Assembly (NCBI GenBank): GCA_963642815.1
Contig: CAVIIB010000011.1
Location: 21,934 to 36,178, forward strand
From: Oscillospiraceae bacterium
Lineage (GTDB): Bacteria > Bacillota > Clostridia > Oscillospirales > Oscillospiraceae
Direction of reading: 5' to 3'
DNA: 14,245 nt
Below, in pieces: positions 834 through 14,245 of this stretch. Below the pieces are notes generated by a model, which saw nothing but the letters and a program-made list of their open reading frames with translations, did not search any database and had not been told where the DNA came from. The position numbers and the translations under genes are program-made. Numbering within the stretch: position 1 is the stretch's first letter; every line of letters begins with the position of its first letter.

Positions 834-980
834 TGGGGCAGACCGCAACGCTGATCGGCTGACCTTGCAGCAGCGGGAAAGGCGGTAAACAAGCGCCGCA
901 TTGACGCAAAAATGTCGGGTGCAGGGAAGAGTGTCAATCTAGTGCAATGGAAAAACGCGAATTTGGACAAAATCTGGCGG

Positions 981-989
981 CATATAGTA
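981..989 (+). promoter_or_regulatory. Candidate mother-cell (sigmaE/sigmaK-type) -10 element upstream of sigK
   Basis: CATATAGTA fits the CATAnnnTA pattern of sigmaK-type -10 boxes. It lies only about 22 nt before the ATG and I see no convincing -35, so this is weak. Confidence 0.2.
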
Positions 990-1010
990 GGGGCAAAGGG
1001 GGTCTGCTAT

Positions 1011-1451
1011 ATGCTCTCCACGACGTTTATGCTCCTCGTCTCCGGCGCATTTCTCATGCTGCGCTTGGGCGAGACTGCCGGCTCGTTTCCGCGTCCGCTC
1101 CCGGCCAAGGAGGAGCGCCGCTGCGTCGAGGCGTGGCTGGCGGGGGACACGCAGGCGCGGAACAAGCTCATCGAGCATAACCTGCGGCTGGTCGTACATA
1201 TCGTCAAGAAATACTACGCCGCCTCCGCCGACGCGGAGGATCTCATCTCCATCGGCACCGTCGGTCTCATCAAGGGCGTATCGAGCTACCGCCCCGAAAA
1301 AAACGTCCGCCTCGCCACCTATGCGTCGAGGTGTATAGAAAATGCTATACTATCGAAACGGAAGAATCGGCGGCTGAGGTGGTGGAACGGGTGTCTTTTG
1401 AGGCAAAATGGCGCCTGCTGGCGAGAGTGGGAGTCCGCTGCTATATTCTGA
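1011..1451 (+). CDS. sigK: RNA polymerase sporulation sigma factor SigK, 5' segment only (spoIVCB-like); interrupted after codon 111
   Basis: ATG 1011 is preceded by AAGGGGG (996-1002). [111 protein letters not shown] matches B. subtilis pro-SigK along its length (..[67 protein letters not shown]..). After N111 (nt 1341-1343) the frame reads [19 protein letters not shown]... to a stop at 1449-1451, with no sigma regions 3/4. The track start at 912 is an upstream extension without an RBS. Confidence 0.85.
1333..1350. repeat. attL-like inverted repeat at the sigK break point
   Basis: GTATAG (1333-1338) and CTATAC (1345-1350) form a perfect 6-bp inverted repeat around AAAATG (1339-1344). SigK similarity ends at 1343/1344, inside the central spacer. 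Confidence 0.5.
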
Positions 1452-1687
1452 TTTCCAATGTATCGGGTGCGGTAAAAGCAGCTCCTCTCCAAATTCTTCA
1501 ATTTCCGGTGATACTGCCGCACAAGCTTCAGGAAGCGGAAAAGTTCAATTTGCAGTTCTCGGACTTTGCGGAAATCACCGAAACGGCGGACACGCTAGGT
1601 GTCAGTCTTGGCAGTCTCAAGCAGTGGGAACAAAACCGCAAGCAGATATTCAAATCCACGTGGGAGAAGTATTTCAAGCAGGCATAA
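1391..1687 (+). CDS. Small helix-turn-helix (XRE-like) DNA-binding protein; start uncertain
   Basis: The C-terminal part [30 protein letters not shown] has the FAxxLGVSxxTLxxWEQGRR HTH pattern. GTG 1391 has GAGGTG (1376-1381) 9 nt upstream. The track start at 1331 lies in the host sigK part and is unlikely. Alternative starts are GTG 1508 and TTG 1550. A terminator follows immediately. Confidence 0.45.
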
Positions 1688-1694
1688 CCATAGC

Positions 1695-1735
1695 AAACGG
1701 GCAGACCAGCCTTAAAAGCCGGTCTGCCCGTTTTT
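1695..1735. terminator. Rho-independent terminator shared by convergent genes
   Basis: A 13-bp stem AAACGGGCAGACC (1695-1707) / GGTCTGCCCGTTT (1721-1733) is followed by TT(TTT) on the + strand. The stop codon of the minus-strand 68-aa ORF lies inside the hairpin. Confidence 0.75.
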
Positions 1736-1918
1736 CGTATGTATCACTTGCCCCTTCAGATGCCTTGCCGCCGCGTCCACCAGCTCCAGCTTCTGCTCCG
1801 TGGAGCAGGGCAGCTTCTGGACATTTTTCAGCACCTGCTCGGACTGGAACTTCGCCAGCTCCTGTGCAAGCTCCTGCTTTGCCTGCCGGGACTTGGGGAA
1901 AATCAAAAATACTTCCAT
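1712..1918 (-). CDS. Hypothetical small protein (68 aa), coiled-coil-like and Lys/Glu/Gln-rich
   Basis: There is a strong SD: the minus strand reads GGAAAGGAGGGCAGCG-ATG, with AAGGAGG 6 nt from the ATG. The ORF ends in the shared terminator. No family recognised. Confidence 0.55.
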   Translation of the reverse strand: MEVFLIFPKSRQAKQELAQELAKFQSEQVLKNVQKLPCSTEQKLELVDAAARHLKGQVIHTKNGQTGF

Positions 1919-2034
1919 CGCTGCCCTCCTTTCCAGAGCATTTGCTGTTTCAATCTATGTCTGATTTGTAGAGTATATGTAAAGTTGCCTCTTTCTGATG
2001 GGGGTTATAGGGGGCAAACGCCCCCTCAAATTTG

Positions 2035-2052: not shown

Positions 2053-2220
2053 TGTTGCTTGAAGGTAACGGTGCCGTTTCCTTTCCTGTCCTGCGTCTCA
2101 CTCCGCAGAGTTTTTCCACTTCGGCCACATCATCGTTGGTACTGCACAGCGGCCAGCAGAAGCAGGAGATGCGCCGAATCGTCGGGCATGAGATGGTGGT
2201 TGACATAATACATGGCGGAG

Positions 2221-2253
2221 GAAAAACAAAGAGGCCCCACACCGGAGCCTCTT
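2221..2253 (-). terminator. Minus-strand rho-independent terminator-like hairpin with no obvious upstream gene
   Basis: The stem AAGAGGC (2229-2235) / GCCTCTT (2247-2253) is followed on the minus strand by TTGTTTTTC (complement of 2221-2228). Confidence 0.4.
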
Positions 2254-2365
2254 GGCGTTTAATATTTACGATGTATATGGCTTCTGCGCGGGCACCGGCT
2301 ACGGCACTATAGACAAGGCATGGGTAGGAAGATAGGCAGAGGTACTTTTCCTGCTTCCTGAGTAT

Positions 2366-2400
2366 AAATCCCTTAATACAGGCATAATAGTAAGGGATTT
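2366..2400. repeat. 10-bp perfect inverted repeat AAATCCCTTA / TAAGGGATTT with a 15-nt loop
   Basis: Read directly from the sequence. It sits just upstream of the fic promoter. A related TCCCTTA/TAAGGGA pair brackets the -10 region (2421-2450). Confidence 0.45.
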
Positions 2401-2413
2401 ATGGCACAGCCCA

Positions 2414-2442
2414 TTGACTATTCCCTTATTTTATATTATTAT
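2414..2442 (+). promoter_or_regulatory. SigmaA-type promoter for fic
   Basis: TTGACT (2414-2419), a 17-nt spacer, then TATTAT (2437-2442). The RBS GGAGGTG (2458-2464) lies 6 nt before ATG 2471. Confidence 0.5.
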
Positions 2443-2470
2443 TTAAGGGAAAACGAATGGAGGTGAGGGA

Positions 2471-3517
2471 ATGAGAACCTTCAATTACTCCGCAATCAAG
2501 GAACAAAAGTGGGACGCGGATATTCTTGGTCTGATTGCAGCCATATACAAGGAAGCCGGCAAGCAGGAACTGTATTTGAAGCAGCGCCCGGAGGAACTTG
2601 AAAAGCTCGTGGAGATTGCCAAGATACAGAGCACCGAGGCATCGAATGCCATCGAGGGCATCGTCACCACGAGTACCCGAATCCGGCAGCTCGTCGAGGA
2701 GAAAACCACGCCGAGAAACCGTGACGAGCAGGAAATTGCCGGATATCGCGATGTGCTGAGTATCATTCACGAGAGCTTTGACGCGATACCAATTACGCAG
2801 AACTACATTCTGCAGCTTCACAAAATCCTGTACAGCCACATGAACAACCCACTTGCGGGCCGCACCAAAGCTACGCAGAATTATATCACTGCCACCTACC
2901 CGGACGGTCATGTGGAAACGCTGTTCACCCCGCTTGCCCCTTATGAAACGCCGGAAGCGCTGGAGAGAATCTGCGAGGAATACAATCGAGTGATTGGCAA
3001 CATGGAACTGGAGCCGTTGATTGCGATCCCGGTTTTCATCCATGACTTTTTGTGCATCCACCCCTTCAATGACGGAAACGGAAGAATGAGTAGATTGCTC
3101 ACGACGCTGCTTCTGTACCGAAATGGTTTTTATGTTGGAAAGTACATCTCCCTTGAAGCTAAAATCGCCAAAAACAAGGATCTGTACTACGACGCACTTG
3201 CACAGGCGCAAACCGGCTGGCACGAAGGCACAGAAGATGTAGTGCCATTCATCAAGTACCTGCTCGGGACGATCCTTGCGGCATATAAGGACTTCGAGGA
3301 TCGTGTAGCGCTTGTGGAAACCAAGCTGCCCGCACTGGAAATGGTGCGCAGAGCAAGCAAAAACAGAATCGGGCGGTTCAACAAACAGGATATCCGAGAG
3401 CTTTGCCCGACGCTCAGTGACAGTTCCATTGAGGGGGCCCTCCGCAAACTGGTCGCAGCCGGTGAACTGAAGAAAGAAGGAAGAGGGAAAAATACCCGTT
3501 ACTTCAGGCTAAATTAA
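2471..3517 (+). CDS. fic: Fic family protein (class II, N-terminal inhibitory helix, C-terminal winged-helix-like domain)
   Basis: The Fic motif HPFNDGNGRMSR (nt 3059-3094) fits HxFx(D/E)GNGRxxR. The inhibitory motif SNAIEG (nt 2642-2659) fits (S/T)xxxE(G/N). The gene has a strong RBS and its own promoter and terminator. Confidence 0.9.
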   Translation: MRTFNYSAIKEQKWDADILGLIAAIYKEAGKQELYLKQRPEELEKLVEIAKIQSTEASNAIEGIVTTSTRIRQLVEEKTTPRNRDEQEIAGYRDVLSIIHESFDAIPITQNYILQLHKILYSHMNNPLAGRTKATQNYITATYPDGHVETLFTPLAPYETPEALERICEEYNRVIGNMELEPLIAIPVFIHDFLCIHPFNDGNGRMSRLLTTLLLYRNGFYVGKYISLEAKIAKNKDLYYDALAQAQTGWHEGTEDVVPFIKYLLGTILAAYKDFEDRVALVETKLPALEMVRRASKNRIGRFNKQDIRELCPTLSDSSIEGALRKLVAAGELKKEGRGKNTRYFRLN

Positions 3518-3545
3518 GAGCGCGACAAAGAGCAAAAAATAGCAG

Positions 3546-3917
3546 TCATTCAATATCAGAACGTGGCGGAATATCCGCGAAACCTTGCATGACAAAACCG
3601 TCGCCCCGACCGAAAATCGGGGCGGCGGTTTTATGCAGGGGAGAAAAGGGTCGCATTTGAGGCATGACAAGTAAGATGGGTTGCCGCTGGATAATCATTG
3701 TCTGCGGGTGTTTTTCCGGGATGGCGCGGTAAATTTCGTTGTCGGTGTAATTTTTATCTCTGAAGCTGTGGGTAACAAGCAGTCCCGTATCTGCCATGTA
3801 GCATTTTTGCGTGGTATTGTTCCGTTGTGAGAGCAATATGCGCCTGTATTCAACTTTGTAATATTGTCGGTGCGTTATTTCAATTTTACAAGTACGCGGC
3901 TGAATGATATTCTTTTG
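3546..3917 (-). pseudogene. Possible remnant of an AAA+ ATPase (DUF4143-type) gene
   Basis: The minus frame is open from 3917 to 3546. The upstream part ...YKVEYRRILLSQRNNTTQKCYMADTGLLVTHSF... resembles the KxYxxDTGLL segment of DUF4143 ATPases (from memory). There is no N-terminal ATPase domain and no RBS, and the frame runs through the fic terminator. Confidence 0.25.
3597..3632. terminator. Rho-independent terminator after fic (bidirectional-looking)
   Basis: A 13-bp stem ACCGTCGCCCCGA (3597-3609) / TCGGGGCGGCGGT (3617-3629, one G-T pair) is followed by TTT on the + strand. AAAA precedes it, which gives a T-run on the minus strand. Confidence 0.75.
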
Positions 3918-3935
3918 TCATAGATAATGACAAAA
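3913..3935. promoter_or_regulatory. Inverted repeat TTTTGTCAT-agata-ATGACAAAA, candidate operator upstream of the LysR gene
   Basis: Perfect 9-bp arms sit in the AT-rich 3837-4035 intergenic region, about 100 nt upstream of ATG 4036. The dyad is compatible with LTTR-type T-N11-A sites. Confidence 0.35.
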
Positions 3936-4035
3936 TGCACAAATGGAATAAAAAAGAATCTAAAATTCTTGTTGAAAACACCGTGTTGCTTGTTGTATTG
4001 TGTGTAGGACAAGACAATAAGAAAGGTGTGTAGTC

Positions 4036-4911
4036 ATGACTTTCAATCAGCTGAATTACTTCATTACAGTTGCAAGAAATCTGAGCTTCTCCCGTGCGGC
4101 TGAATTACTTTTTGTAACACAGTCCACGCTGAGCCGCAGCATCGCATCTATGGAAAGCGAATTGGGGGTCACATTATTCGACCGTGTTTATCACAATCTG
4201 AAGCTGACACCGGCAGGCGAGCTTATGCTTCGAGATGGCGTAAAGATCATGGATAGTATGAATTCCTTAATCGGGAGGATGCAGTCCATGGAGGAAAGTA
4301 AAAAGAAGCGCCTGACCATTGGCATTCTGGACGGGCAAAAGGTCGAAACAAGGGTTTTGCTTGCCGTCAAGCGAATATTGGAGGATATTCCGGAGTTTGG
4401 CATTGATATACGCCGGATGGACTATGAAACGGCTATACAGGGCGTTTCGGAGTCAAAGCTGGATGTCGTGCAAACCCTGATGTCCGCAGACACGGTGCTA
4501 GAGGACAGCGTTGACCAAATTCTTATAGAAGATGAGAGCTACTATTTGGTAGCCAGCAACGACGATCCGATCTGGCAGGAGTGGAACCAATCATCGCTGT
4601 CTGTGCTGGATAAGAAAGTGCTGCTGATGTCCCATGCGTATCCGGGGAATGACGACCTTCTTAAAAAGCTTTCCGACGCGGGAATCCTCTCAAGAGTAAA
4701 GGTCGTGCCCGACATGGAGACGCTTTCCCTTTGGCTCGAAGCAGGTATGGGCGTTTCTATATGCAATGCCAGCCATGTTACGTGCAGCTCTGGCGTAAAA
4801 AGATCCGTGCGGGCAGAGTGTCTGGACACACTTCCCAAAGCTCCAGTGGCCTTGCTTTGGAATAAAAACAATCTGTCTTCGCTGTTGGAGCTGTTCCTGT
4901 CATATATGTAA
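4036..4911 (+). CDS. LysR-family transcriptional regulator
   Basis: The N-terminal HTH MTFNQLNYFITVARNLSFSRAAELLFVTQSTLSRSIASMESELGVTLFDR is canonical for LTTRs. At 291 aa, the rest is a C-terminal substrate-binding-type domain. Confidence 0.9.
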   Translation: MTFNQLNYFITVARNLSFSRAAELLFVTQSTLSRSIASMESELGVTLFDRVYHNLKLTPAGELMLRDGVKIMDSMNSLIGRMQSMEESKKKRLTIGILDGQKVETRVLLAVKRILEDIPEFGIDIRRMDYETAIQGVSESKLDVVQTLMSADTVLEDSVDQILIEDESYYLVASNDDPIWQEWNQSSLSVLDKKVLLMSHAYPGNDDLLKKLSDAGILSRVKVVPDMETLSLWLEAGMGVSICNASHVTCSSGVKRSVRAECLDTLPKAPVALLWNKNNLSSLLELFLSYM

Positions 4912-4925
4912 GAAGCGAGATCTGC

Positions 4926-4954
4926 TTGCAAACCGGCACAGCACATAGGATTAT
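4926..4954 (+). promoter_or_regulatory. Candidate promoter of the oxidoreductase/ABC operon
   Basis: TTGCAA (4926-4931), a 17-nt spacer, then GATTAT (4949-4954), in the 80-nt gap between the LysR gene and the flavoprotein gene. Confidence 0.3.
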
Positions 4955-5006
4955 TGGTGGCAGGATGCCATTGATGATAAATAAACGATAGTTGGAGGTA
5001 AAGGCA

Positions 5007-6791
5007 TTGGACAAAGTAATCAAGGCTGATGTGCTGGTTATCGGCGGCGGTCAAGCCGGGTGGTTCGCGGCCATGAAGGCCCAGGAGCACGGTGCGAAGG
5101 TCGTCCTTGCGGATAAGGGCTATGCCGGAAAATCCGGTCAGTCACAGAACATCACCTGCATGGTGTATTTTGACCCGGAAAAGAACGATCTGAACAAATG
5201 GATTGAAGAGGGTGCCATCGCGGATGAGTGGCTCGAAAACCGCGACTGGGTTGAAACGGTCTATCTGGAAAGCAAGGCACGCTGGGACGACATGGCTCGC
5301 TGGGGAATGGTGTCCTGGCGCTACGATAAGAACGGCGATGCGTATCAAGCGCCGATCAACGGCTCTGACGATGAGCGCTGCCCCGGAGACCCTGAGGAGG
5401 ATCGTATTACAAATTACCTCATTGACAACCGCTATCACTACAAGCTGCGTCCTGTGTTCGAGAAGATCGGCGGCACGATCATCGACCGAATCATGATCAC
5501 CGACCTCATCAAGCAGGATGGGCGTATTGCGGGTGCCATCGGCTTCCGGGCGGACGAGGAGGACACTACATACATCTTCCATGTACCCGCCGTTGTGCTG
5601 GCTTGCGGCGCTGGTGGCATGAAGACGGCGGGCATCCGCACCACGACTACCACGGGCGACGCGCAGGCCATGGCTTACCGCATTGGCTGTGCAGTCACCG
5701 GTAAGGAATTTTCCGACCAGCACGGCGCTCGCGGCGATTTCCCGGCCTATCCATGGACGGGCAACGACCGCAACCCCTATTATCCGAAATACGATGAGAC
5801 CGTAAAGACGCTGGCGGAGCATCTGCCTCTTTACAACATCTATGAGCAGAAGGTCGACTGCAACCGTCCTAATCTGGAGCACCAGCACATTCTGCCTTTC
5901 AACGCGCTGGCGATGGCATGGGAAGCGCACTGCGGACGTGGCCCTGTGTTCTATAAGGTGGACGGCAATCCCGACACAGCGCCCATCAACCACAATCCGA
6001 GCGACAAGCCACGGGAAGAGGTCGATGAGGAATTCATGAAAAAGGGCATGGTTCGTATGTCCATCGGACGCGCCCTTGGTCAGTCCTATACCTTGGCCGA
6101 CGGCGTCTGGTCGGACGGACTGGAGTGCGAGACACAGGTTCCCGGCCTGTACGCCACCGGCGACTGCCTTGGTGCAAGGACAGGCTATCCCATGGCCGGG
6201 TTTGCAGCAGCCTTCACGGCTGTGTCCGGCTCTCGCGCCGGTATCAACGCCGCAGAATATGCGCAGAAATCCGGCGATTATGAACTCGATTCTAACGAGG
6301 TGGAGCGGCTAAAGAATACACTCTGGGCACCCATGAATCGGATCGGTGGCTTTACGCCCCGCTGGGCGATCCAGGTGATCCAAGACGCCTATCTTCCGTA
6401 CTGGATCTCCCTATATAAGAATGAGGAGCGGCTACAGGCAGCTCTGACAAATCTTCTATTCATCAGGGATAACATCATCCCCCAGCTCAAGGTCTACAAC
6501 AACCATGATCTGCGGCTGGCGCACGAGGCTCGGAACATCATTCTCCATATGGAGATGAAGATCCGTGCGGCTCTGATGCGCAAGGAAAGCCGCTGGTATC
6601 ACTACCGAGAGGATTACCCCCTGCGTGACGACGAAAACTGGCTTTGCTGGATAAAGATTCAGGATGTGAACGGCGAAATGACCTTTACTAAGATTCCGGT
6701 GCCTGAGAAGTGGCACCCCGATCACTCCCTGCCCTACAAGGAGCGCTATCCGATCCAGTTCCCCAATGAACCGGCTGTCCTGCCGAACTAA
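5007..6791 (+). CDS. FAD-dependent oxidoreductase, succinate dehydrogenase / fumarate reductase / APS reductase (AprA)-like flavoprotein
   Basis: It has an N-terminal Rossmann motif DVLVIGGGQAGWFAAMKAQEHGAKVVLADKG, a distal FAD motif YATGDCLGARTG, and a C-terminal RKESRWYHYREDYPLRDDENW typical of the FrdA/SdhA/NadB/AprA capping region. The likely start is TTG 5007, with GGAGG at 4994-4998 (8 nt upstream); the track start TTG 4992 overlaps that RBS. Confidence 0.85.
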   Translation: MDKVIKADVLVIGGGQAGWFAAMKAQEHGAKVVLADKGYAGKSGQSQNITCMVYFDPEKNDLNKWIEEGAIADEWLENRDWVETVYLESKARWDDMARWGMVSWRYDKNGDAYQAPINGSDDERCPGDPEEDRITNYLIDNRYHYKLRPVFEKIGGTIIDRIMITDLIKQDGRIAGAIGFRADEEDTTYIFHVPAVVLACGAGGMKTAGIRTTTTTGDAQAMAYRIGCAVTGKEFSDQHGARGDFPAYPWTGNDRNPYYPKYDETVKTLAEHLPLYNIYEQKVDCNRPNLEHQHILPFNALAMAWEAHCGRGPVFYKVDGNPDTAPINHNPSDKPREEVDEEFMKKGMVRMSIGRALGQSYTLADGVWSDGLECETQVPGLYATGDCLGARTGYPMAGFAAAFTAVSGSRAGINAAEYAQKSGDYELDSNEVERLKNTLWAPMNRIGGFTPRWAIQVIQDAYLPYWISLYKNEERLQAALTNLLFIRDNIIPQLKVYNNHDLRLAHEARNIILHMEMKIRAALMRKESRWYHYREDYPLRDDENWLCWIKIQDVNGEMTFTKIPVPEKWHPDHSLPYKERYPIQFPNEPAVLPN

Positions 6792-6805
6792 AGAGAGGTG
6801 TAAAC

Positions 6806-7024
6806 ATGGCTATTGAGAGAATCGACCTTGGGAAATGTGTGGGCTGCGGCACCTGCCGAAATGTTTGCAGCTGTGATGTTATCCGGCTCGACGACAAGGG
6901 TATGCCCTATATCAAATATAAGGACGAGTGCTGTGTGTGCCTGTACTGCATGGAGGATTGCCCCACGGGCGCGATCTATGTAGCGCCGGAGAAATATCTG
7001 AAGCAGAAAAACGCCTGGGGCTGA
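6806..7024 (+). CDS. 2x[4Fe-4S] ferredoxin (72 aa)
   Basis: Two cluster motifs are present: CVGCGTCRNVC and CVCLYCMEDCP. The RBS AGAGGTG lies 5 nt upstream, and the gene starts 14 nt after the flavoprotein stop. Confidence 0.85.
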   Translation: MAIERIDLGKCVGCGTCRNVCSCDVIRLDDKGMPYIKYKDECCVCLYCMEDCPTGAIYVAPEKYLKQKNAWG

Positions 7025-7071
7025 CATAAGCGCAGGATGTGACCCATACCCCACCATGATAACGAAAAAAT

Positions 7072-7096
7072 GGTGTCCACCGGGATGCTGGACACC
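7072..7096. other. Intra-operon stem-loop GGTGTCCA-ccgggatgc-TGGACACC
   Basis: An 8-bp stem sits between the ferredoxin and SBP genes, flanked by A-runs on the + strand, so it is not a + strand terminator. It may be an mRNA processing or stability element. Confidence 0.35.
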
Positions 7097-7126
7097 AAAA
7101 ATAAAACAGAAAGTTGAGGTATTGCA

Positions 7127-8743
7127 ATGAAAAAGACCCTATCGCTCCTTCTGGCTCTTGTGCTTTGCCTTGGTATGCTGACCGCCTGTGGCAGCAGTGA
7201 GCCAGTGGAAGAAGACAGCGCAGCGGTGACCGAAGCGGTCAAGGAGGAAACCGTCTTGGAGGTGGAGGCTGCCGCAGTTCCCGAAGGCAAGACAGACCTT
7301 GTTGTGGGCGGCTTTACGGACACCACATCCTTTGATCCCTTGTCGGAGACCAATGACACGAGCATCATGATCGGCCTCTGTGTGTTCGACAACCTCTTCA
7401 CCCTGAACGACGACGGAAGTTTTAATTACCAGCTTGCCGAAAATGCGGAGTGGGTCGAGAATGACGGCGCATGGTCCGTTGTGATCACGCTGAAACCGGG
7501 GATCAAGTTCCATTCTGGGGACGAGCTTTCCTGTGAGGATGTGCTTTTTACCTTGCAGCGTATGTCCGACAACTTCATGTACAGCAGCCGCGTCTCAGCT
7601 GCCAACTTTGATGAGGCGGTCATCGACGGAAACACGCTCACCATTCCCATGCATCGGTATGATGCTCGCTTCCTGCCTAATCTGACCAGTGAGCTCGGCT
7701 ATATTCTGAACAAGAGCTACGTTGAGGAGGTCGGCGATGAGAAGGCCTTCCAGCAGCCCGACGGCACCGGCCCGTATGTCTTTACGAAGTGGGTCACCAA
7801 CGAATCCGTCACGCTCACCCGCAACGAGGAATACTGGGGCGATGCCGGAGCGTTTGAGACGATCGTCTACAAATTCTTCTCCGATGACAACACGAGAGTT
7901 CTGGAGTTTGAGGCCGGCAATCTGGACATCTGCGCCGTGGAATCCGGCGAAAATCTGGACAGCCTCGCGGCTGGTGATTATGAGGGCTGCGGCCTGTATA
8001 CATGGCTGACAAACAAGATGGGTATGCTGTTCTTCAACAACAGCACGGAGAGTTCGCCTTTCTATGAGAACCCCGCACTGCGCAAGGCAGTGGCCGCAGC
8101 CATTGACCTGGAAGCAATCGTTGAGTCCATGGGCGGCTCCACTACGGTCGCTGCGACCTCCTCGTTGCCCACCAGCGCTGCCGCCTATGCGGAGCATCTG
8201 AATGTCTATGACCCTGAGCTTGCCAAGCAGTATCTGGAGGAAGCGGGCTATCCGAACGGCTTCTCTTTCACCTTTATGGTCGCTTCCGATCAGGGCTCCA
8301 ACCTAAAAATGGCGGAGGCTATCCAGGCATATCTGAGCCAGGTTGGCATCGAAATGACGATCGAACCGCTGGATCTCGGCACGCTCATGGGCTATCAGAT
8401 GAGCGGCGAACAGGTCTGCGGCATCGTGGATAACACCATCCGCGGCGATGACTATGAGATGTATCAGAACCAGGAGCTCGGCTCCGGCAACAAGCTTACG
8501 GAGATCCACAATGATGATTATCAGGCTCTGCTCAGCAGCATCCTCTCCGAGCGGGATCATGATACTCGTATCAAGCTGTTCCAGGAGATTCAGGACACGG
8601 TCTATGACCAGTGCTACTTTGTGCCGCTGTATCAGAACCGTGGCGCGTGGGCCTATCAGGACTATGTGACCGGTCTAGATGAAAACGGCGTTCTCACAGC
8701 GGAGAAAATCGTGGACTTTGCTGCGCTCGGCTTTGTCAAGTAA
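7127..8743 (+). CDS. ABC transporter substrate-binding lipoprotein, family 5 (Opp/Dpp/Nik type)
   Basis: The signal peptide carries the lipobox MKKTLSLLLALVLCLGMLTA-C. Family-5 hallmarks are present (..LAENAEWVENDGAWSVVITLKPGIKFHSGDELSCEDVLFTLQRM..). The RBS GAGGT lies 6 nt upstream. Confidence 0.9.
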   Translation: MKKTLSLLLALVLCLGMLTACGSSEPVEEDSAAVTEAVKEETVLEVEAAAVPEGKTDLVVGGFTDTTSFDPLSETNDTSIMIGLCVFDNLFTLNDDGSFNYQLAENAEWVENDGAWSVVITLKPGIKFHSGDELSCEDVLFTLQRMSDNFMYSSRVSAANFDEAVIDGNTLTIPMHRYDARFLPNLTSELGYILNKSYVEEVGDEKAFQQPDGTGPYVFTKWVTNESVTLTRNEEYWGDAGAFETIVYKFFSDDNTRVLEFEAGNLDICAVESGENLDSLAAGDYEGCGLYTWLTNKMGMLFFNNSTESSPFYENPALRKAVAAAIDLEAIVESMGGSTTVAATSSLPTSAAAYAEHLNVYDPELAKQYLEEAGYPNGFSFTFMVASDQGSNLKMAEAIQAYLSQVGIEMTIEPLDLGTLMGYQMSGEQVCGIVDNTIRGDDYEMYQNQELGSGNKLTEIHNDDYQALLSSILSERDHDTRIKLFQEIQDTVYDQCYFVPLYQNRGAWAYQDYVTGLDENGVLTAEKIVDFAALGFVK

Positions 8744-8756
8744 TTTACACCGCAAC

Positions 8757-8782
8757 CAAGGGGCGTTTTACGACGCCCCTTG
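8757..8782 (+). terminator. Stem-loop after the SBP gene (attenuator/stabiliser; no T-tract)
   Basis: A 10-bp stem CAAGGGGCGT / ACGCCCCTTG with loop TTTACG lies 14 nt after the stop. The lack of a U-run suggests partial termination or 3' end protection, as is common after SBP genes. Confidence 0.4.
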
Positions 8783-8841
8783 CCTTGCATGGTGTCCTCA
8801 TCCTGTTACGGCGTTTTTGTGAACAGACAAGGAGATTCTCG

Positions 8842-9900
8842 ATGATCAAATACACAATAAAACGGCTTCTGCTGATGATCCCTATACTGCTTGGGGTAAT
8901 TCTTGTCGTTTTCACCATCAATTATTTTTCCACCGGCTCACCGGCTATGGCGCTGCTGGGCAGCGCGGCGACACCGGAGAACATCGCGTCGGTCGAACAT
9001 GAGCTGGGTCTGGATCGTCCCTATTTTGTCCAGCTGGGAGAGTATTTGTGGAATATTATCACCAAGTTCGATCTTGGAAACTCCTATGCGTATAAGCGGC
9101 CAGTGATCGAAATGATCGGCGAGGTGGTCGGAAAAACCGTCGCGCTGGGTCTTTTGGGGACGGCTTTATGTATATTGATCGGCGTACCGCTGGGCATATT
9201 TGCGGCAACAAAGCAATACTCCGTCATTGACTATATCTCCACGATCTTCGCGACACTTCTGGCGGCGCTTCCCAGCTTTTGGCTTGCGCTTATGCTTATG
9301 CTCTTGTTCTCGGTAAAGCTGGGATGGCTACCGATATCGGGTCTGGACGGGCCGCTGAGCTATATTCTGCCGGTGCTGTCGATCGGTGCGTTCCCAGTGG
9401 CGATGATCACCCGCATGACCCGTTCGTCCATGCTAGAGGTCATCCGTCAGGACTACATCGTGACGGCGAAAGCCAAGGGACTGCCATCTTCCGTCGTTAT
9501 TTTCCGCCATGCCATGAGAAACGGCATGATCCCGGTCGTGACCATGATCGGTGTGAGCGCCGGCCTCGCTATGACCGGCACTATCATCATCGAGACGATC
9601 TTCAACATACCGGGCATGGGTATGCTGATGAACTCCGCCATCAATAAATACGACTATCTTCTCACACAGGGTGTCGTCCTCATCTGCGCCATCATCATCT
9701 GTGGGACAAATCTCCTGACTGATCTGGTGTATGCGCTCATTGACCCAAGGATCCGGGAGCAGTATGCGAATTCCGCCCGCCATGCCGGAGGGCGTCTGGC
9801 GGCAAAGAAAAAGAAGCGTGAGATCCAAGAAGAAGCCGCAGAGGCTGTATCACGGCAGCCCTTACAGAGCGATGAGGCGGGAGGGGAAAACGATGGCTAA
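8842..9900 (+). CDS. ABC transporter permease (DppB/OppB type) with a hydrophilic C-terminal tail
   Basis: ATG 8842 (MIKYTIKRLLLMIPILLGV...) has GGAG 7 nt upstream; the track start 8785 is an extension. The protein has the usual ..DPRIR ending, followed by a 47-aa charged tail. Confidence 0.9.
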   Translation: MIKYTIKRLLLMIPILLGVILVVFTINYFSTGSPAMALLGSAATPENIASVEHELGLDRPYFVQLGEYLWNIITKFDLGNSYAYKRPVIEMIGEVVGKTVALGLLGTALCILIGVPLGIFAATKQYSVIDYISTIFATLLAALPSFWLALMLMLLFSVKLGWLPISGLDGPLSYILPVLSIGAFPVAMITRMTRSSMLEVIRQDYIVTAKAKGLPSSVVIFRHAMRNGMIPVVTMIGVSAGLAMTGTIIIETIFNIPGMGMLMNSAINKYDYLLTQGVVLICAIIICGTNLLTDLVYALIDPRIREQYANSARHAGGRLAAKKKKREIQEEAAEAVSRQPLQSDEAGGENDG

Positions 9901-10792
9901 GACCAAGCAAGAAAGCTGCGCCCTTGTAAAACAGGAGGCGAGCGATACCAAGAAGCGCTCCCAGGCAGAGGAGACATGGCGTGGACTGAAAAAGAACAAG
10001 CTTGCCATGGTGTCGCTGGCGTTTATCATTGTTTTGGTGCTTTCCTGCGCCTGTGCCGACTGGCTGGCGCCATACGATTATGATAAGATCGATCTCTCCG
10101 CCCGTATGCAGCTTCCCAGCTGGGAGCATTTGATGGGTACGGATGATTTTGGACGGGATATTTTCTCCCGCATACTTTACGGAGGCAGGGTCTCTCTGCT
10201 GGTGGCTCTGTGTACGGTCGCAGCCAGCATTGTGATCTCCACTATTCTGGGTGCGACTGCCGGTTATTTTGGCGGCTGGTATGATAACCTTGTCATGCGG
10301 CTGACCGATGTATTTATGGCGATCCCCGGTATGCTCCTTTCTATTTCCGTCTGCGCGGCTCTTGGCTCCGGCATTGTGAATACCGGCATCGCCATGACCG
10401 TCTGCAATATTCCGAGCCTGACCCGTGTGGTGCGCTCCTCAACGCTGCTGCTCCGCGATCAGGAATACATCGAGGCGGCTACTTCCTTCGGCGCAGGGCG
10501 GTGGCATATTATCAAACGCCACATCATCCCCAATATTCTGGCGCCTATCATCGTGCAGTCGTCTCTGAAACTCGGTGATGCCATTCTGTCTATCGCGGGA
10601 CTGAGCTTCATCGGTTTGGGGATACAGCCGCCGACACCGGAATGGGGCTCCATGCTCAATAGCGGCAGGGAGTTCATCCGTTCCTTCTGGCCGCTCATTA
10701 CCTTCCCCGGTATCATGATCGCGCTCACCATGCTTGCCTTTAACCTACTGGGAGACGGACTGCGGGATGCCATGGATCCCCGGCTCAAGTGA
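9893..10792 (+). CDS. ABC transporter permease (DppC/OppC type)
   Basis: ATG 9893 (MAKTKQES...) has GGAGGGG upstream and overlaps the upstream stop (ATGGCTAA). The C-terminus ..LLGDGLRDAMDPRLK is typical. The track start 9731 overlaps the previous gene by 170 nt and is unlikely. Confidence 0.9.
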   Translation: MAKTKQESCALVKQEASDTKKRSQAEETWRGLKKNKLAMVSLAFIIVLVLSCACADWLAPYDYDKIDLSARMQLPSWEHLMGTDDFGRDIFSRILYGGRVSLLVALCTVAASIVISTILGATAGYFGGWYDNLVMRLTDVFMAIPGMLLSISVCAALGSGIVNTGIAMTVCNIPSLTRVVRSSTLLLRDQEYIEAATSFGAGRWHIIKRHIIPNILAPIIVQSSLKLGDAILSIAGLSFIGLGIQPPTPEWGSMLNSGREFIRSFWPLITFPGIMIALTMLAFNLLGDGLRDAMDPRLK

Positions 10793-10804
10793 GGAGGGAC
10801 GAAG

Positions 10805-11782
10805 ATGAATAAGCTGCTGGAAGTCAAAAATCTAGTCGTTGAATACAAGACCGATGAGAGCATAATACACGCGGTCAACGGTGTGAGCTTTGCTGTTGAG
10901 GAGGGTAAGGTTTTGGGCATTGTCGGCGAGACAGGTGCCGGAAAGACTACGACCTGCAAAAGCATACTGAGGCTCATATCGGAGATCAACGGAAAGATCA
11001 AAGAGGGCGAGATCCTTTATAGAGGCATGGACATTCTCAAAATGTCCGATGTCGAGATGGGAAAGATCCGGGGCGGAGAGATATCCATGATTTTTCAGGA
11101 TCCGATGACAGCGCTGAATCCGATCATGACCGTGGGAAAACAGATCGGAGAGATCATACGCCGCCATCAAAAGTGCTCGCGGGCGGAGACAGAGCTCCGG
11201 GTCGCGGAGATGCTGGAGCGCGTGGGTATCAGCCGGGAGAGAGCCTCGGACTATCCCCACCAGTTCTCCGGCGGCATGAAGCAGCGTGTGGTGATTGCGA
11301 TGGCGCTTGCGTGCAATCCATCCCTGCTGCTGGCGGACGAGCCGACGACGGCGCTGGATGTCACCATTCAGGCACAAATGCTTGAGATGATAAAACGTCT
11401 TCAGGAGGAATATCATACAGCTATGATCCTTATTACCCATGATTTGGGGATCGTGGCAGAGACCTGTGATTATGTGGGGATCATGTACGCTGGCGAGATC
11501 GTGGAGTTCGGCTCTGCCCAGCACATTTTCGAGAATGCGCGACATCCCTACACGCAAGGATTATTTAACGCTATTCCAAGCATTGACAAGCGCGTGAAGC
11601 GTCTGGCGGTCATTCCGGGGCTTGTGCCGGATCCGTCAGACCTGCCGGAGGGGTGCAGGTTTAGCCCCCGCTGCGGCTGCCATACCGGCGTATGCAGCGA
11701 GTGCTGCCCCAGCTATGAAGAGGTGGAGCAGGGACATTTGGTGAAATGCTTCCATGCTTGGAAAGGAAAGGACGGAGAATGA
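10805..11782 (+). CDS. ABC transporter ATP-binding protein (OppD/DppD type)
   Basis: It has Walker [10 protein letters not shown], signature FSGGMKQR, Walker [14 protein letters not shown]-loop ITHDL, and an oligopeptide-type C-terminal domain with a Cys cluster. The RBS GGAGGG lies upstream. Confidence 0.9.
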
Positions 11783-12729
11783 CCATGAGCTCGATTTTGA
11801 CTGTAAAGCATCTAAAGAAACACTTCAATTCAGCTCACGGTATCATTCACGCAGTTGAAGATATTTCCTTTGATGTAGAGGAGCGCACAACGCTGGGAGT
11901 TGTGGGAGAATCCGGCTGCGGAAAATCCACGCTCGGCAGAATGATCGTCGGACTTTCAGAACCTACCGATGGCGAGGTGAGCTTTGACGGCGTGAATATC
12001 ACTAGTCTGAAAAAGAGGGAGCGCAGCGAATTTCGCAGGAAAATGCAGATGGTATTCCAGGACCCGTCCTCCAGCCTTGATCCCCGTATGTCCGTTCACG
12101 ACCTTATTGAGGAACCGCTGGTGGTAGCTAAGACCTGCCGGACGTCGGCGGAGAGAACGGCCAGAGTGCGGCAGATGATGGACACGGTGGGGCTGGCCTC
12201 GCGATTTGAGTACTCATATTCTCATGAGCTGGACGGTGGCCGGCGGCAGCGCATCGGTATTGCGCGGGCACTGGTGCTCAATCCGCAGTTTATCGTCTGC
12301 GACGAGCCGGTTTCGGCGCTGGATGTGTCCATTCAAGCACAGATCCTGAATCTTTTACAGGATCTGCAGGATGAGCTTGGCCTTACCTATCTGTTTATCA
12401 CCCACGATCTGGCGGTGGTGAATCATATCTCCGACTCCATTCTGGTCATGTATATGGGAGCGGCGGTGGAAATGGCCCCGGTGGACGAGCTTTTCAAGAA
12501 CCCGAAGCACCCGTATACGCACGGTTTGCTTTCAGCCATTCCCATTCCCAAGCTGCGGCCTGAGCGCAAACGCTTTTTGCTGCAAGGGGAAGTCACGAAG
12601 CCGGATGGGAAGCCCGGATGCAAATTCGCCCCGCGCTGTCCCAAGGCGTCAGAGGAATGCTTCTCCGTGACACCACAGCTGCAAAGCGTGGGCGAGCAGC
12701 ACCGCGTGGCCTGCCACCACATCGAGTAA
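11779..12729 (+). CDS. ABC transporter ATP-binding protein (OppF/DppF type)
   Basis: It has Walker A GESGCGKST, Walker B FIVCDEPVSALD and H-loop ITHDL; the signature reads LDGGRRQR (atypical). ATG 11779 overlaps the upstream TGA (ATGA). ATG 11785, with GGAG 7 nt upstream, is an equally good start. Confidence 0.9.
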   Translation: MTMSSILTVKHLKKHFNSAHGIIHAVEDISFDVEERTTLGVVGESGCGKSTLGRMIVGLSEPTDGEVSFDGVNITSLKKRERSEFRRKMQMVFQDPSSSLDPRMSVHDLIEEPLVVAKTCRTSAERTARVRQMMDTVGLASRFEYSYSHELDGGRRQRIGIARALVLNPQFIVCDEPVSALDVSIQAQILNLLQDLQDELGLTYLFITHDLAVVNHISDSILVMYMGAAVEMAPVDELFKNPKHPYTHGLLSAIPIPKLRPERKRFLLQGEVTKPDGKPGCKFAPRCPKASEECFSVTPQLQSVGEQHRVACHHIE

Positions 12730-12782
12730 ACGCGAGTTTATTTGCATGAGCGCTGCGCTCAAAAATGTATCATTTGGGGCAC

Positions 12783-12876
12783 AAAGCCTCTGCTTTTTCC
12801 TCTCCGACCGCCGCAAGTAGGCGGGGTTGGTGTTTTCCAATGGAACACACCTGTGAGGCAAAGCAGAGGCTTTTTT
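12783..12876 (+). terminator. Compound terminator / three-way structured element after the ABC operon
   Basis: A perfect 14-bp outer stem AAAGCCTCTGCTTT (12783-12796) / AAAGCAGAGGCTTT (12860-12873) is followed by TTT. It encloses two inner hairpins: CCGACCGCC..GGCGGGGTTGG and the near-palindrome GGTGTTTTCCAATGGAACACACC. Confidence 0.6.
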
Positions 12877-12955
12877 CGTGGAAACCAACATTTTTCAAAA
12901 GCAAAAAAAGAGAACGCTTTTCTCGGAAATATTTTCGGATTCTTCCCTTGACACC

Positions 12956-12984
12956 TTTTCAAATGGATTCCAAACCGTTATAAT
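12956..12984 (+). promoter_or_regulatory. Candidate promoter of the recombinase gene
   Basis: A perfect TATAAT (12979-12984) has a weak -35 TTTTCA 17 nt upstream (12956-12961). A perfect TTGACA at 12948-12953 is 25 nt away, which is too far. Confidence 0.3.
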
Positions 12985-13021
12985 ATATCTACCAACCTAA
13001 CAAATAACGCGAGGTGTCGCT

Positions 13022-14245
13022 ATGAAAACGAAAGACAAGCCGCAGGCGAAGCAATACGTCATTTATTCCCGCAAATCCAAATTTACCGGCAAGGGCGAGA
13101 GTATTGAAAACCAGATCGAGCTTTGCCGCCAGTATATTGCCATGCACTTTGGCGAGGACGCGGCGGAAAACGCGCTGGTGTATGAGGACGAGGGCTTTTC
13201 CGGCGGCAATCTGGAGCGCCCGCAGTTCAAGAAAATGATGAAGGACTCGCAGAAGATCGAATTTGCGGCCATCGTGGTCTACCGTCTCGACCGTATCAGC
13301 CGCAACATCGGTGACTTTGTAAAGCTCATTGAAGACTTGGGCGACCGGCATATTGACTTCATTTCCGTCCGGGAGCAATTCGATACGTCCTCTCCCATGG
13401 GGCGGGCGATGATGTATATTGCATCGGTGTTCTCCCAGCTGGAGCGGGAGACCATTGCCGAGCGCATCCGGGACAACATGCACGAGCTGTCCAAGACCGG
13501 GCGCTGGCTTGGTGGCACGACGCCCACGGGCTACGCCTCGGAAAGCCTGTCCAGCGTGACAGTGGACGGCAAGGTGAAGAAGGCTTGCAAGCTCAAGCCC
13601 ATTCCGGAGGAAATTCAGCTTGTCAAGATGATTTTCTCTGTATTTATGGAGACCGGCTCTCTCAGCAAGACCGATCAGTACCTGTTGGAGCACCGCTGCG
13701 TCACGAAGCGCGGCAAGCAGTTCACGCGATTTGCCATCCGGGGCATTCTGACCAATCCGGTCTACATGATTGCCGACGAGACGGCGTATCAGTATTTGAA
13801 AGAAAACAATGTTGACCTGTCTGCCGAACGCTCGGAGTTTGACGGCGAACACGGCATTATGGCATATAATCGTACCCTCCAGCGCCCCGGAAAGGCGAAC
13901 CAGATCCGTCCGATGGAGGAATGGATCGTGGCGGTGGGCAAGCATCCCGGCATCATCGCTGGCAGCGACTGGGTGCAGGTGCAGGCCATGCTGGATGTAA
14001 ACAAATCCAAGAGCTACCGCAGACCGCGCAGCAATGTGGCGCTGCTGTCCGGCCTGCTGCGGTGCGGCGAATGCGGCGATTATATGCGCCCGAAGCTGAC
14101 CAACCGCCGCACGGCGGACGGCGAACTGATCTACACCTACATGTGCTCCACCAAGGAGCGCAGCCACAGCACGGTCTGCGGCATGAAAAACTGCAACGGC
14201 AACACGCTGGACGCCAAGATCATCGAGGAGATCCGCAAGCTGTCC
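13022..14245 (+). CDS. Large serine recombinase (SpoIVCA/TndX-like), N-terminal 408 codons; 3' end outside window
   Basis: I translated this frame by hand: ATG 13022 (GAGGTG 5 nt upstream) stays open through 14245 with no stop, so it is absent from the track. Resolvase-domain motifs are present: YVIYSRKSKF (catalytic Ser), VVYRLDRISRN, and SVREQFDTSSPMGRAMMYIASVFSQLERETIAERIRD. These are followed by a recombinase domain (GRWLGGTTPTGY) and a zinc ribbon (LLRCGECGDYM...YMCSTKERSHSTVCG). Confidence 0.9.
   Translation, partial: MKTKDKPQAKQYVIYSRKSKFTGKGESIENQIELCRQYIAMHFGEDAAENALVYEDEGFSGGNLERPQFKKMMKDSQKIEFAAIVVYRLDRISRNIGDFVKLIEDLGDRHIDFISVREQFDTSSPMGRAMMYIASVFSQLERETIAERIRDNMHELSKTGRWLGGTTPTGYASESLSSVTVDGKVKKACKLKPIPEEIQLVKMIFSVFMETGSLSKTDQYLLEHRCVTKRGKQFTRFAIRGILTNPVYMIADETAYQYLKENNVDLSAERSEFDGEHGIMAYNRTLQRPGKANQIRPMEEWIVAVGKHPGIIAGSDWVQVQAMLDVNKSKSYRRPRSNVALLSGLLRCGECGDYMRPKLTNRRTADGELIYTYMCSTKERSHSTVCGMKNCNGNTLDAKIIEEIRKLS

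Follow-up and report, generated by a model that had tools for sequence, protein, structure and literature searches.

A skin-type cargo island splits the sporulation gene sigK in an Oscillospiraceae genome and is probably excised in the mother cell

We analysed a stretch of 14,245 nucleotides (nt) from an Oscillospiraceae bacterium (contig CAVIIB010000011.1; hereafter the window, numbered from its first letter) in which the sporulation sigma factor gene sigK breaks off halfway. The interrupting DNA is a non-phage island of ~13.4 kb whose far edge encodes a large serine recombinase; it is a real skin-type (sigK-intervening) element and one more of a known arrangement. We read the window as the 5′ half of sigK followed by nearly all of this cargo island, which would be excised in the mother cell to rebuild the gene, and we put the probability of this reading at about 0.75.

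The interrupted gene occupies the following positions.

945–1010, plus strand: sigK promoter region, with a conserved block CGCGAATTTGGACAAAA (956–972), a −10-like sequence CATATAGT (981–988) and a ribosome-binding site.
1011–1343, plus strand: 5′ half of sigK (the spoIVCB equivalent), pro-SigK codons 1–111, covering the pro-sequence and region 2; identified by translation, Pfam, NCBIfam and tblastn.
1344–1451, plus strand: read-through tail of the truncated sigK open reading frame (ORF), AILSKRK...AAIF, made of element sequence and ending in a stop at 1449–1451.

The ORF at 1011–1451 encodes 146 amino acids (aa), and its sole Pfam domain is Sigma70_r2 at residues 53–121. For residues 1–111, the NCBIfam SigK models TIGR02846 and NF004471 rank first, at 132.5 bits versus 107.7 for SigE; the curated SigK cut-off is missed only because half of the protein is absent, and full-length homologues carry the NCBI name SigK. 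When the window was searched by tblastn with Bacillus subtilis SigK (a query 100% identical to the B. subtilis protein over residues 1–113), residues 27–116 aligned to nt 1083–1352 with 62% identity, and no further credible match was found in any of the six frames; sigma regions 3 and 4 are therefore absent. The intact orthologues P0001 (90% identical), P0002 and P0009 all read ...CIEN-EILMHFR, and the window diverges from them after N111. Alignment with the uninterrupted gene of locus L006 places the break in codon 111 (AAT, 1341–1343), with identity stopping at G1344. Up to this joint the 5′ half contains no frameshift or stop; the tail beyond it differs between variants and is not a conserved peptide. 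A preliminary description of this DNA had proposed a skin-type split, with pro-SigK followed as far as N111 (nt 1343), foreign sequence from there to the TGA at 1449–1451 and no regions 3 and 4 in any frame. All of this was borne out, and the possibility it had raised, that SigK of relatives might naturally continue like the tail in the window, is countered by the three intact orthologues.

The truncation is not confined to the window. The same or a near-identical truncated SigK recurs in independent assemblies (P0004, P0241 and P0242; contigs L217, L218 and L219), which rules out an artefact of a single assembly, and every sampled allele of the SigK N-half of this host is interrupted. The promoter block is conserved in the window, in L217 and L002, and in front of the uninterrupted gene in L006. 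Inside it lies GGACAAA, which resembles a SpoIIID box, and the −10-like sequence that follows is of the CATAnnnT kind, the mother-cell sigma-E/sigma-K type (PMC3789822).

The missing 3′ half is present in a close relative. Metagenome contig NODE_2094 of ENA (23,363 nt; loci L217 and L001) matches window positions 2126–14245 (12.1 kb) at 97.7% identity and holds the sigK 5′ half (P0241), the same cargo, a recombinase of 571 aa and then the start of the sigK 3′ half (EILMHFRAMRK...), within which the contig ends. Both halves lie on the same strand, their joints are ~13.36 kb apart, and the 3′ half resumes exactly at the stop codon of the recombinase: the recombinase ends ...GAT AGC GAA TGA, and the overlapping frame AAT GAA ATA CTC ATG CAC reads N-EILMHFRAMRKSAQDVSLSDALDTD. 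Joining this 3′ part in silico to nt 1343 of the window gave ...RCIENEILMHFRAMRK..., in frame as in intact SigK, and the product ...RCIEN+EILMHFRAMRK... matched P0001 with 90% identity and 100% coverage over the 136 residues available. The fragment starting with EILM and the in-frame joint that the preliminary description had pointed to were thus both recovered, with the 3′ half taken from the relative. For the window itself, the right attachment site (attR) is predicted ~490 nt past the end (~14,736), as ...GGATAGCGAATGAAATACTCATG....

These two joints define the attachment sites, of which the window contains the left one.

1322–1361, plus strand: attL, with host arm ...GTGTATAGAA, shared core AATG (1341–1344) and element arm GCTATACTATCGAAACGG (G1344 shared with the core).

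With a slash marking the joint, alignment with the intact gene gives attL as GTGTATAGAAAATG/CTATACTATCGAAACGG, and NODE_2094 (L001) gives attR as CCGTCGGGAGAGGATAGCGAATG/AAATACTCATGCAC; 10 other left ends show the same left joint. From these joints attB is deduced as GTGTATAGAAAATGAAATACTCATG, with a predicted joint …TGTATAGAAAATGAAATACTCATG…, and attP as CCGTCGGGAGAGGATAGC-GAAT-GCTATACTATCGAAACGG. In attP a perfect inverted repeat (ATAGC and GCTAT) surrounds GAAT and is flanked by longer imperfect arms (CCGT...ACGG). The two sites are identical only in AATG, and they are short with imperfect dyad symmetry, as for large serine integrases. As deduced, attB lies inside sigK codons 108–116. Crossover most likely takes place at the AA of the Asn111 codon (1341–1342), given the symmetry of attP and the flipped centre of three inverted elements described below. 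The stop codon TGA of the recombinase is made of host bases, so that after excision its ORF would extend by at least 16 codons.

The recombinase gene and its promoter close the window.

12956–12984, plus strand: promoter of the recombinase gene, of sigma-A type (TTTTCA, 17 nt, TATAAT), from a motif scan.
13022–14245, plus strand: large serine recombinase, the first 408 of ~571 codons, running off the window; identified by translation and from the L001 relative.

The full-length L001 relative (571 aa) contains the Pfam domains Resolvase, Recombinase and Zn_ribbon_recom. The recombinase aligns with SpoIVCA, the skin recombinase of B. subtilis, along its whole length at 26% identity, and the NCBIfam model with the longest alignment is XisF (E = 1.1e-37, far below the family cut-off). 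Conservation of its promoter extends to 29 related loci, with TATAAT or an extended TGnTATAAT, and from this sigma-A-type motif we therefore class it as a housekeeping-type promoter.

A second conserved module lies at the left end of the island.

1391–1687, plus strand: short XRE-type helix-turn-helix (HTH) gene with an uncertain start (GTG 1391 after GAGGTG); from alignment, Pfam on the L002 homologue and frame analysis.
1712–1918, minus strand: conserved small ORF of 68 aa (58 aa in most relatives), a candidate recombination directionality factor (RDF); from a hidden Markov model (HMM) and co-occurrence.
1952–1978, minus strand: ATATA-N14-CATAGATT, a promoter motif of sigma-E type in front of the small ORF, from a motif scan.

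The HTH gene of the window lacks an internal segment that is present in the 173-aa version of L002, which has two HTH motifs. The small ORF is found in all 11 visible left ends, in the complete elements and in the contigs with an attP joint (see below), and it is the only gene besides the recombinase that these have in common. Its HMM gave 17 matches in the first 87 loci plus the window, and 6 more in contigs from the attP scan. It forms 755 protein clusters, all of them unnamed, and had no match in Pfam (E up to 10), NCBIfam or PADLOC. AlphaFold models it as a two-helix hairpin (pLDDT, the predicted local distance difference test, 83), and this model had no match in the PDB below E = 4.7. In the window the ORF is without its usual stop, and ten extra codons reach into a bidirectional terminator shared with the HTH gene.

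The promoter motif upstream of the small ORF reads ATATACTCTACAAATCAGACATAGATT and is the sole match to ATAT-N15-CATAnnnT in the 14 kb of the window, where 0.06 would be expected. Across distinct lineages, ATA-N15–17-CATAnnnT precedes the small ORF in 8 of 13 versus a background of 0.27%, and CATAnnnT occurs within 70 nt of its start in 11 of 13 versus 5.5%. A CATAnnnT −10 is of the mother-cell sigma-E/sigma-K type by the consensus of Clostridioides difficile, in which sigma-E promoters combine an ATA −35 with the −10 that sigma-K promoters also use; for the latter a box CATATAAT is quoted (PMC3789822). On its co-occurrence with the element and on this motif, we propose that the small ORF encodes the RDF.

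Evidence for the other product of recombination came from metagenomes. A scan for the attP core returned 120 metagenome and 7 viral matches; most of the former and all of the latter were chance palindromes or terminators, and matches were kept only with an adjoining recombinase. Four metagenome contigs (L116, L186, L106 and L192) carry an attP joint, in which the 3′ end of the recombinase is joined to GCTATAC... or GCTATCC...; the left-end module with the small ORF follows, and sigK is absent. The joint in L116, …CCGTTGGGAGAGGATAGCGAAT/GCTATACTATCGCAGCGG…, is the one predicted from the left end of the window and the right end of L001. An excised or unintegrated configuration exists in nature. 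Terminal overlap, which would prove circularity, was found in none of these contigs.

We also considered a conserved fusion of recombinase and HTH protein across attP. In the window, in L002 and L004, and in the attP contig L186 (a 777-aa ORF), the recombinase can be read without a stop across attP and on into the HTH gene. Its frame stops after 16–17 codons in L116, L106, L069 and L083, and we rejected the fusion, a reading further weakened by the GAGGTG and GTG or ATG start that the HTH gene has of its own ~50 nt in; ~18 codons open by chance suffice.

The host gene appears to be maintained. In every locus with sequence beyond attR, the sigK 3′ part is open and can be aligned up to residue 204 of 232 or further, and the ratio of non-synonymous to synonymous substitution rates (dN/dS) on 3′ halves was 0.19–0.50 in 13 of 14 pairs, the 14th being saturated. 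To these we add the conserved promoter and the finding of interrupted alleles only.

Taken together, this suggests the following course of events. The island would have integrated by way of its large serine recombinase, attP recombining with attB within sigK codons 108–116, and in vegetative cells and the forespore sigK would be split and inactive. The recombinase, expressed from its housekeeping-type promoter, would always be present and alone able only to integrate. In the mother cell, the sigma-E-type promoter would turn on the small ORF at the left end, and its product together with the recombinase would join attL to attR and free the island as a circle. sigK would thereby be rebuilt in frame, and its product would still require processing because SigK of this host has a pro-sequence. 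We infer the timing of excision in the mother cell, its dependence on sigma-E and the role of the small ORF from the promoter motifs and by analogy.

Between the left-end module and the recombinase, the island carries defence-related and metabolic genes.

2471–3517, plus strand: Fic-domain protein, SoFic-like (Pfam Fic; PADLOC SoFic, E = 9.5e-40, nearly full length).
3546–3836, minus strand: remnant ORF of 96 aa with a faint DUF4143 signal.
4036–4911, plus strand: LysR regulator (Pfam, NCBIfam).
5007–6791, plus strand: FrdA/SdhA-like flavoprotein binding flavin adenine dinucleotide (Pfam, NCBIfam).
6806–7024, plus strand: 2x[4Fe-4S] ferredoxin (Pfam, NCBIfam).
7127–12729, plus strand: ATP-binding cassette (ABC) importer of the Opp/Dpp/Nik type, five genes (Pfam, NCBIfam).
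7127–8743, plus strand: family-5 binding protein of this importer.
8842–9900 and 9893–10792, plus strand: its permeases.
10805–11782 and 11779–12729, plus strand: its ATPases.

Pfam and NCBIfam found no phage structural, lysis or replication genes in the window, and Rfam found no RNA families there. The island is thus without the prophage-like content by which skin elements were classically recognized. Likewise, no phage structural or conjugation family was among the top 25 Pfam families of 112 cargo proteins surveyed in 27 related elements; this survey gave BREX BrxL, type I restriction–modification, AIPR and methylases, as well as glycyl-radical enzymes, acyl-CoA dehydrogenases, short-chain dehydrogenases/reductases, peptidases and ABC transporters. 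The 90%-identity cluster of the Fic protein has 15,736 members, by which this cargo gene, matching an anti-phage defence model, appears very widely spread. The ORF at 3546–3836 appears to be a remnant of an AAA_14-domain ATPase of ~595 aa, seen in L008 (8001–9788) and with homologues in L014, L015, L017, L025, L028, L035 and L045; this ATPase is 75–91% identical between elements and often lies no more than a few kb upstream of the recombinase, in several cases directly upstream.

On the other side of sigK, an ORF on the plus strand (1–442) is open from the start of the window to a TAG at 443–445 and ends ...ASQYNHQSGEYVKKSLSQRWNDMPDGQRIQRDLYSAFLL. By eye it resembles a TnpB/Cas12-like C terminus without the zinc-finger cysteines, and it had no match in Pfam or PADLOC. 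Some 220 nt beyond it are three 34-nt direct repeats spaced 67–68 nt apart, like a mini-array of clustered regularly interspaced short palindromic repeats (CRISPR); those at 666–699 and 733–766 are identical and that at 801–834 matches at 82%. The relatives L217 and L002 have an asparaginase gene ~130 nt upstream of sigK instead, and only in the genome of the window does the block of ORF and repeats directly precede the sigK promoter.

The island belongs to a large family. Scanning one genome per species with the L001 recombinase yielded 549 relatives, and we examined the best 80 (58–97% identity). These come from many Oscillospirales, including Ruminococcaceae bacterium D5, Anaeromassilibacillus, Pseudoflavonifractor, Dysosmobacter, Oscillibacter, Intestinimonas, Flavonifractor, Flintibacter and Faecalibacterium. 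For 61 of these relatives the sequence reads ...GGATAGCrAAy/GArATyCTsATG... at the end of the recombinase gene and continues directly into SigK residues 112 to the end; most of the remaining 19 stop at a contig edge, and L013, L023 and L062 are joined to other sequence. Only L001 shares the cargo of the window, other loci having in common with it just the recombinase and ~100–300 nt upstream. The left ends of L002–L005, from a related species, show the same joint, ~250 conserved nt, the HTH gene and the small ORF, and carry sortases, a pilin and a zeta toxin beyond this module. Two complete elements, of 4.8 kb (L083) and 7.0 kb (L069), contain other transporters and enzymes. By these comparisons, members of the family share only their two ends, and the cargo appears interchangeable. 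We found no paper describing this family of Oscillospiraceae islands.

In three loci (L053, L054 and L074), the element is inverted at the same position of sigK: the recombinase arm meets the 5′ half, and the two lie on opposite strands. Read from that arm, the central bases are ATT in place of AAT. The central dinucleotide sets the polarity of integration, and these inverted elements look like natural orientation control by that dinucleotide. Another arrangement was seen in metagenome contigs (L128, L132, L143, L153, L161 and L166, also L097 and L163), where the recombinase-side arm GGATAGCGAAT is followed at once by the arm of another recombinase of the family, convergent with the first; in the first six of these loci the back-to-back recombinases are 51–54% identical. 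Here one element presumably integrated into the hybrid att site of the other.

Some related genomes show a second break in the sigK 3′ half, right after ...ISRSYVSR (region 4.2), with the tail IEK(K/R)ALEKL found 8.5–8.75 kb downstream. It is seen in L020 (12020–20769), L019 (tail at 20497) and L022 (tail at 20624), is visible with the tail beyond view in L009, L017 and L021, and is suspected only in L049 and L072, where the alignment ends at SigK residue 213. In genomes with this break, sigK is therefore in three pieces. The resumed tail follows a large serine recombinase of 548 aa, unrelated to the family of the window (21% identity), and two 99%-identical copies of it in L020 suggest tandem elements.

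Other explanations of the window have to be weighed against excision in the mother cell. Chimeric assembly, joining sigK to unrelated DNA, deserves almost no weight, as the same joint recurs in the NCBI genome contig of P0004 and in three independent ENA/Logan assemblies (L217, L218 and L219), and the same attL and attR sequences occur in dozens of isolate genomes and metagenome-assembled genomes (MAGs). It is also very improbable that the locus is a decayed paralogue or fragment, with an intact sigK at work elsewhere in the genome. The 5′ half matches the nearest intact SigK at 90% identity and reaches the joint without a frameshift or stop, the sigK promoter has been kept, and a matching in-frame 3′ half lies 13.4 kb downstream in a near-identical contig. 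Beyond the split halves, related loci gave only weak SigK matches by tblastn (L057 at 45% and L051 at 28% identity), which we read as other sigma factors.

A stronger competitor, which we nevertheless consider unlikely, is a dead-end or tolerated insertion: sigK would have been knocked out in a host without need of, or poor at, sporulation, and excision would serve transfer only. Several observations speak for it or against our own reading. The recombinase promoter is of the housekeeping type, and the cargo includes defence and metabolic genes, as in ordinary genomic islands. The contigs with an attP joint are compatible with transfer intermediates or could be other replicons, and that of L192 lies inside a contig of 52.7 kb. 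Recombinases 93–97% identical sit in different genera, which implies frequent recent transfer; the insertions are therefore recent, and the dN/dS values reflect mostly selection before insertion and are not decisive. Carriers include genomes named Faecalibacterium prausnitzii and Oscillibacter valericigenes, both of which we take to be non-spore-formers. O. valericigenes has been called non-spore-forming (bioRxiv 10.1101/2022.02.25.481979). In these two the insertion may simply be tolerated, and the sigK 3′ half of F. prausnitzii is the most diverged (41%). The small ORF of the window also departs from its relatives by its C-terminal extension of 10 aa. Its lack of similarity to any known RDF or solved structure in profile and structure searches we count as neutral, since RDFs are not known to have a common fold.

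What speaks against a merely tolerated insertion is regulation and place. In 8 of 13 diverged lineages the small ORF has the sigma-E-type motif in front of it, far above the background, and one recombinase lineage keeps strictly to a single position in a gene used only in the mother cell (61 of 80 genomes). The sigK promoter and both halves of the gene are intact. There is also precedent for excision tied to the mother cell, in each of skinBs, skinCd, SPbeta and gin (PMC5025042, PMC4191935, PMC5595907).

Beyond the window, we tentatively entertain a broader reading, whose chances we rate a shade below even. The islands may constitute an undescribed and very large family of non-phage cargo elements in gut Oscillospirales, which a single recombinase lineage would insert at the Asn111 codon in either orientation according to the central dinucleotide. 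Excision in the mother cell would depend on a new type of RDF, a 58-aa helical hairpin under a sigma-E-type promoter. sigK would be a landing pad with several sites, the second hot spot (...SRSYVSR) being used by an unrelated recombinase, and defence and metabolic genes would be carried at no cost to the germ line.

A split sigK is routinely mis-annotated as a pseudogene or as a fragment of the ‘sigma-70 family’, and the genome can then look incapable of sporulation. The joints …GAAAAT/GCTATAC… and …GGATAGCGAAT/GARAT… allow the capacity for sporulation to be scored correctly in hundreds of genomes and MAGs of gut Oscillospiraceae. The islands also form a natural series, with one integrase and attachment site, interchangeable cargo, a candidate new RDF and reversal of orientation through the central dinucleotide. 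Such a family is useful for asking why mother-cell genes attract mobile DNA, and it is a possible source of new sets of integrase, attP/attB and RDF. The interest lies mainly in its size, modularity and regulatory signature, the window alone being one more skin element.

Among characterized systems, the element of C. difficile 630, skinCd, offers a close parallel in layout and control. There, experiments showed that the recombinase CD1231 is constitutive and that the RDF CD1234 depends on sigma-E (PMC5025042). Going by its published description, skinCd resembles the island in ending with the recombinase gene, which points the same way as sigK and directly precedes the 3′ half, and in combining a sigma-A-type recombinase promoter with a sigma-E-type promoter on a small accessory gene (PMC5025042). 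It is 14.6 kb long, compared with ~13.4 kb here, and is prophage-like, whereas the island is without phage genes; moreover, SigK of C. difficile lacks the pro-sequence found in our host.

The B. subtilis element skinBs interrupts a SigK that has a pro-sequence, as here, and uses the same CIENEILM motif of region 2.4. The preliminary description had suggested that the two elements share a target site, with spoIVCB and spoIIIC joined after N113. Its count was right, ARCIEN ending at residue 113 in B. subtilis, and the shared motif stands; the exact crossover does not, because spoIVCB products (P0121 and P0123) read ...CIENEI/VITKGG and so follow SigK through Ile115. At the DNA level, the joint derived from genome loci is GAAAATGAGATT/GTAATTAC, versus GAGAACGAAATCCTCATG in an intact relative. 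The joints being two codons apart, the attB sites must overlap and the crossovers differ, that of skinBs lying several nt downstream. N-halves from other Bacilli end at CIENEI, CIENEIL or CIENEILM. skinBs further differs in being a prophage-like element of 48 kb, and its recombinase SpoIVCA, only 26% identical to ours, sits right next to the 5′ half in the opposite orientation, whereas ours is co-oriented at the edge of the 3′ half. SpoIVCA is itself under sigma-E control (PMC4191935).

A different position in sigK is used by skinCd, skinCt and phage phiS63, which share a similar location other than that of skinBs, the 10-nt core of phiS63 being GTAATGAAAT at nt 427 (PMC3442830). This core, placed at the EGNEI codons, is ~30 codons downstream of our element, and Parageobacillus P0165 breaks right after EGNEI. 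ENEI (codons 112–115) and GNEI (~141–144, both in B. subtilis numbering) are the two hot spots that have been described for insertion of skin elements, and they hold nearly the same octamer. The ENEI codons read AATGAGAT or AACGAAAT in the B. subtilis group and AATGAAAT in the attB deduced for the window, and the phiS63 core lies at GNEI; the octamer AATGAxAT is spelled both at the B. subtilis ENEI codons and in that core. This shared octamer may be the reason why serine integrases have captured sigK repeatedly.

More distant parallels are gin, in gerE of B. cereus ATCC 10987, and the fdxN element of Anabaena. The former, with GirC and GirX, is likewise a non-prophage element in a mother-cell gene with a serine recombinase and a small RDF (PMC5595907), but it has another target, is much smaller, carries no cargo and uses a sporulation-specific recombinase. 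The latter is developmentally excised with the large serine recombinase XisF, in the heterocyst development of cyanobacteria and from another target, and the similarity is at the level of the superfamily only. Elements of the same kind were compiled by Galperin et al. 2022 (Table S7), who listed 15 split sigK genes with elements of 2.6–48 kb and widened the skin class to elements of any content. These elements have no gene in common except the recombinase, which in most cases directly precedes spoIIIC. That account does not describe the sequence of the joint, the conserved small ORF and its promoter, or how large the family is. One of the listed elements, in Caproiciproducens sp. NJN-50, is 12.1 kb long with 11 ORFs, a 562-aa recombinase and a 114-aa N-half (Galperin et al. 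2022). By this description it resembles ours in its Oscillospirales host and in a recombinase placed immediately upstream of spoIIIC, and its recombinase is probably of the same lineage.

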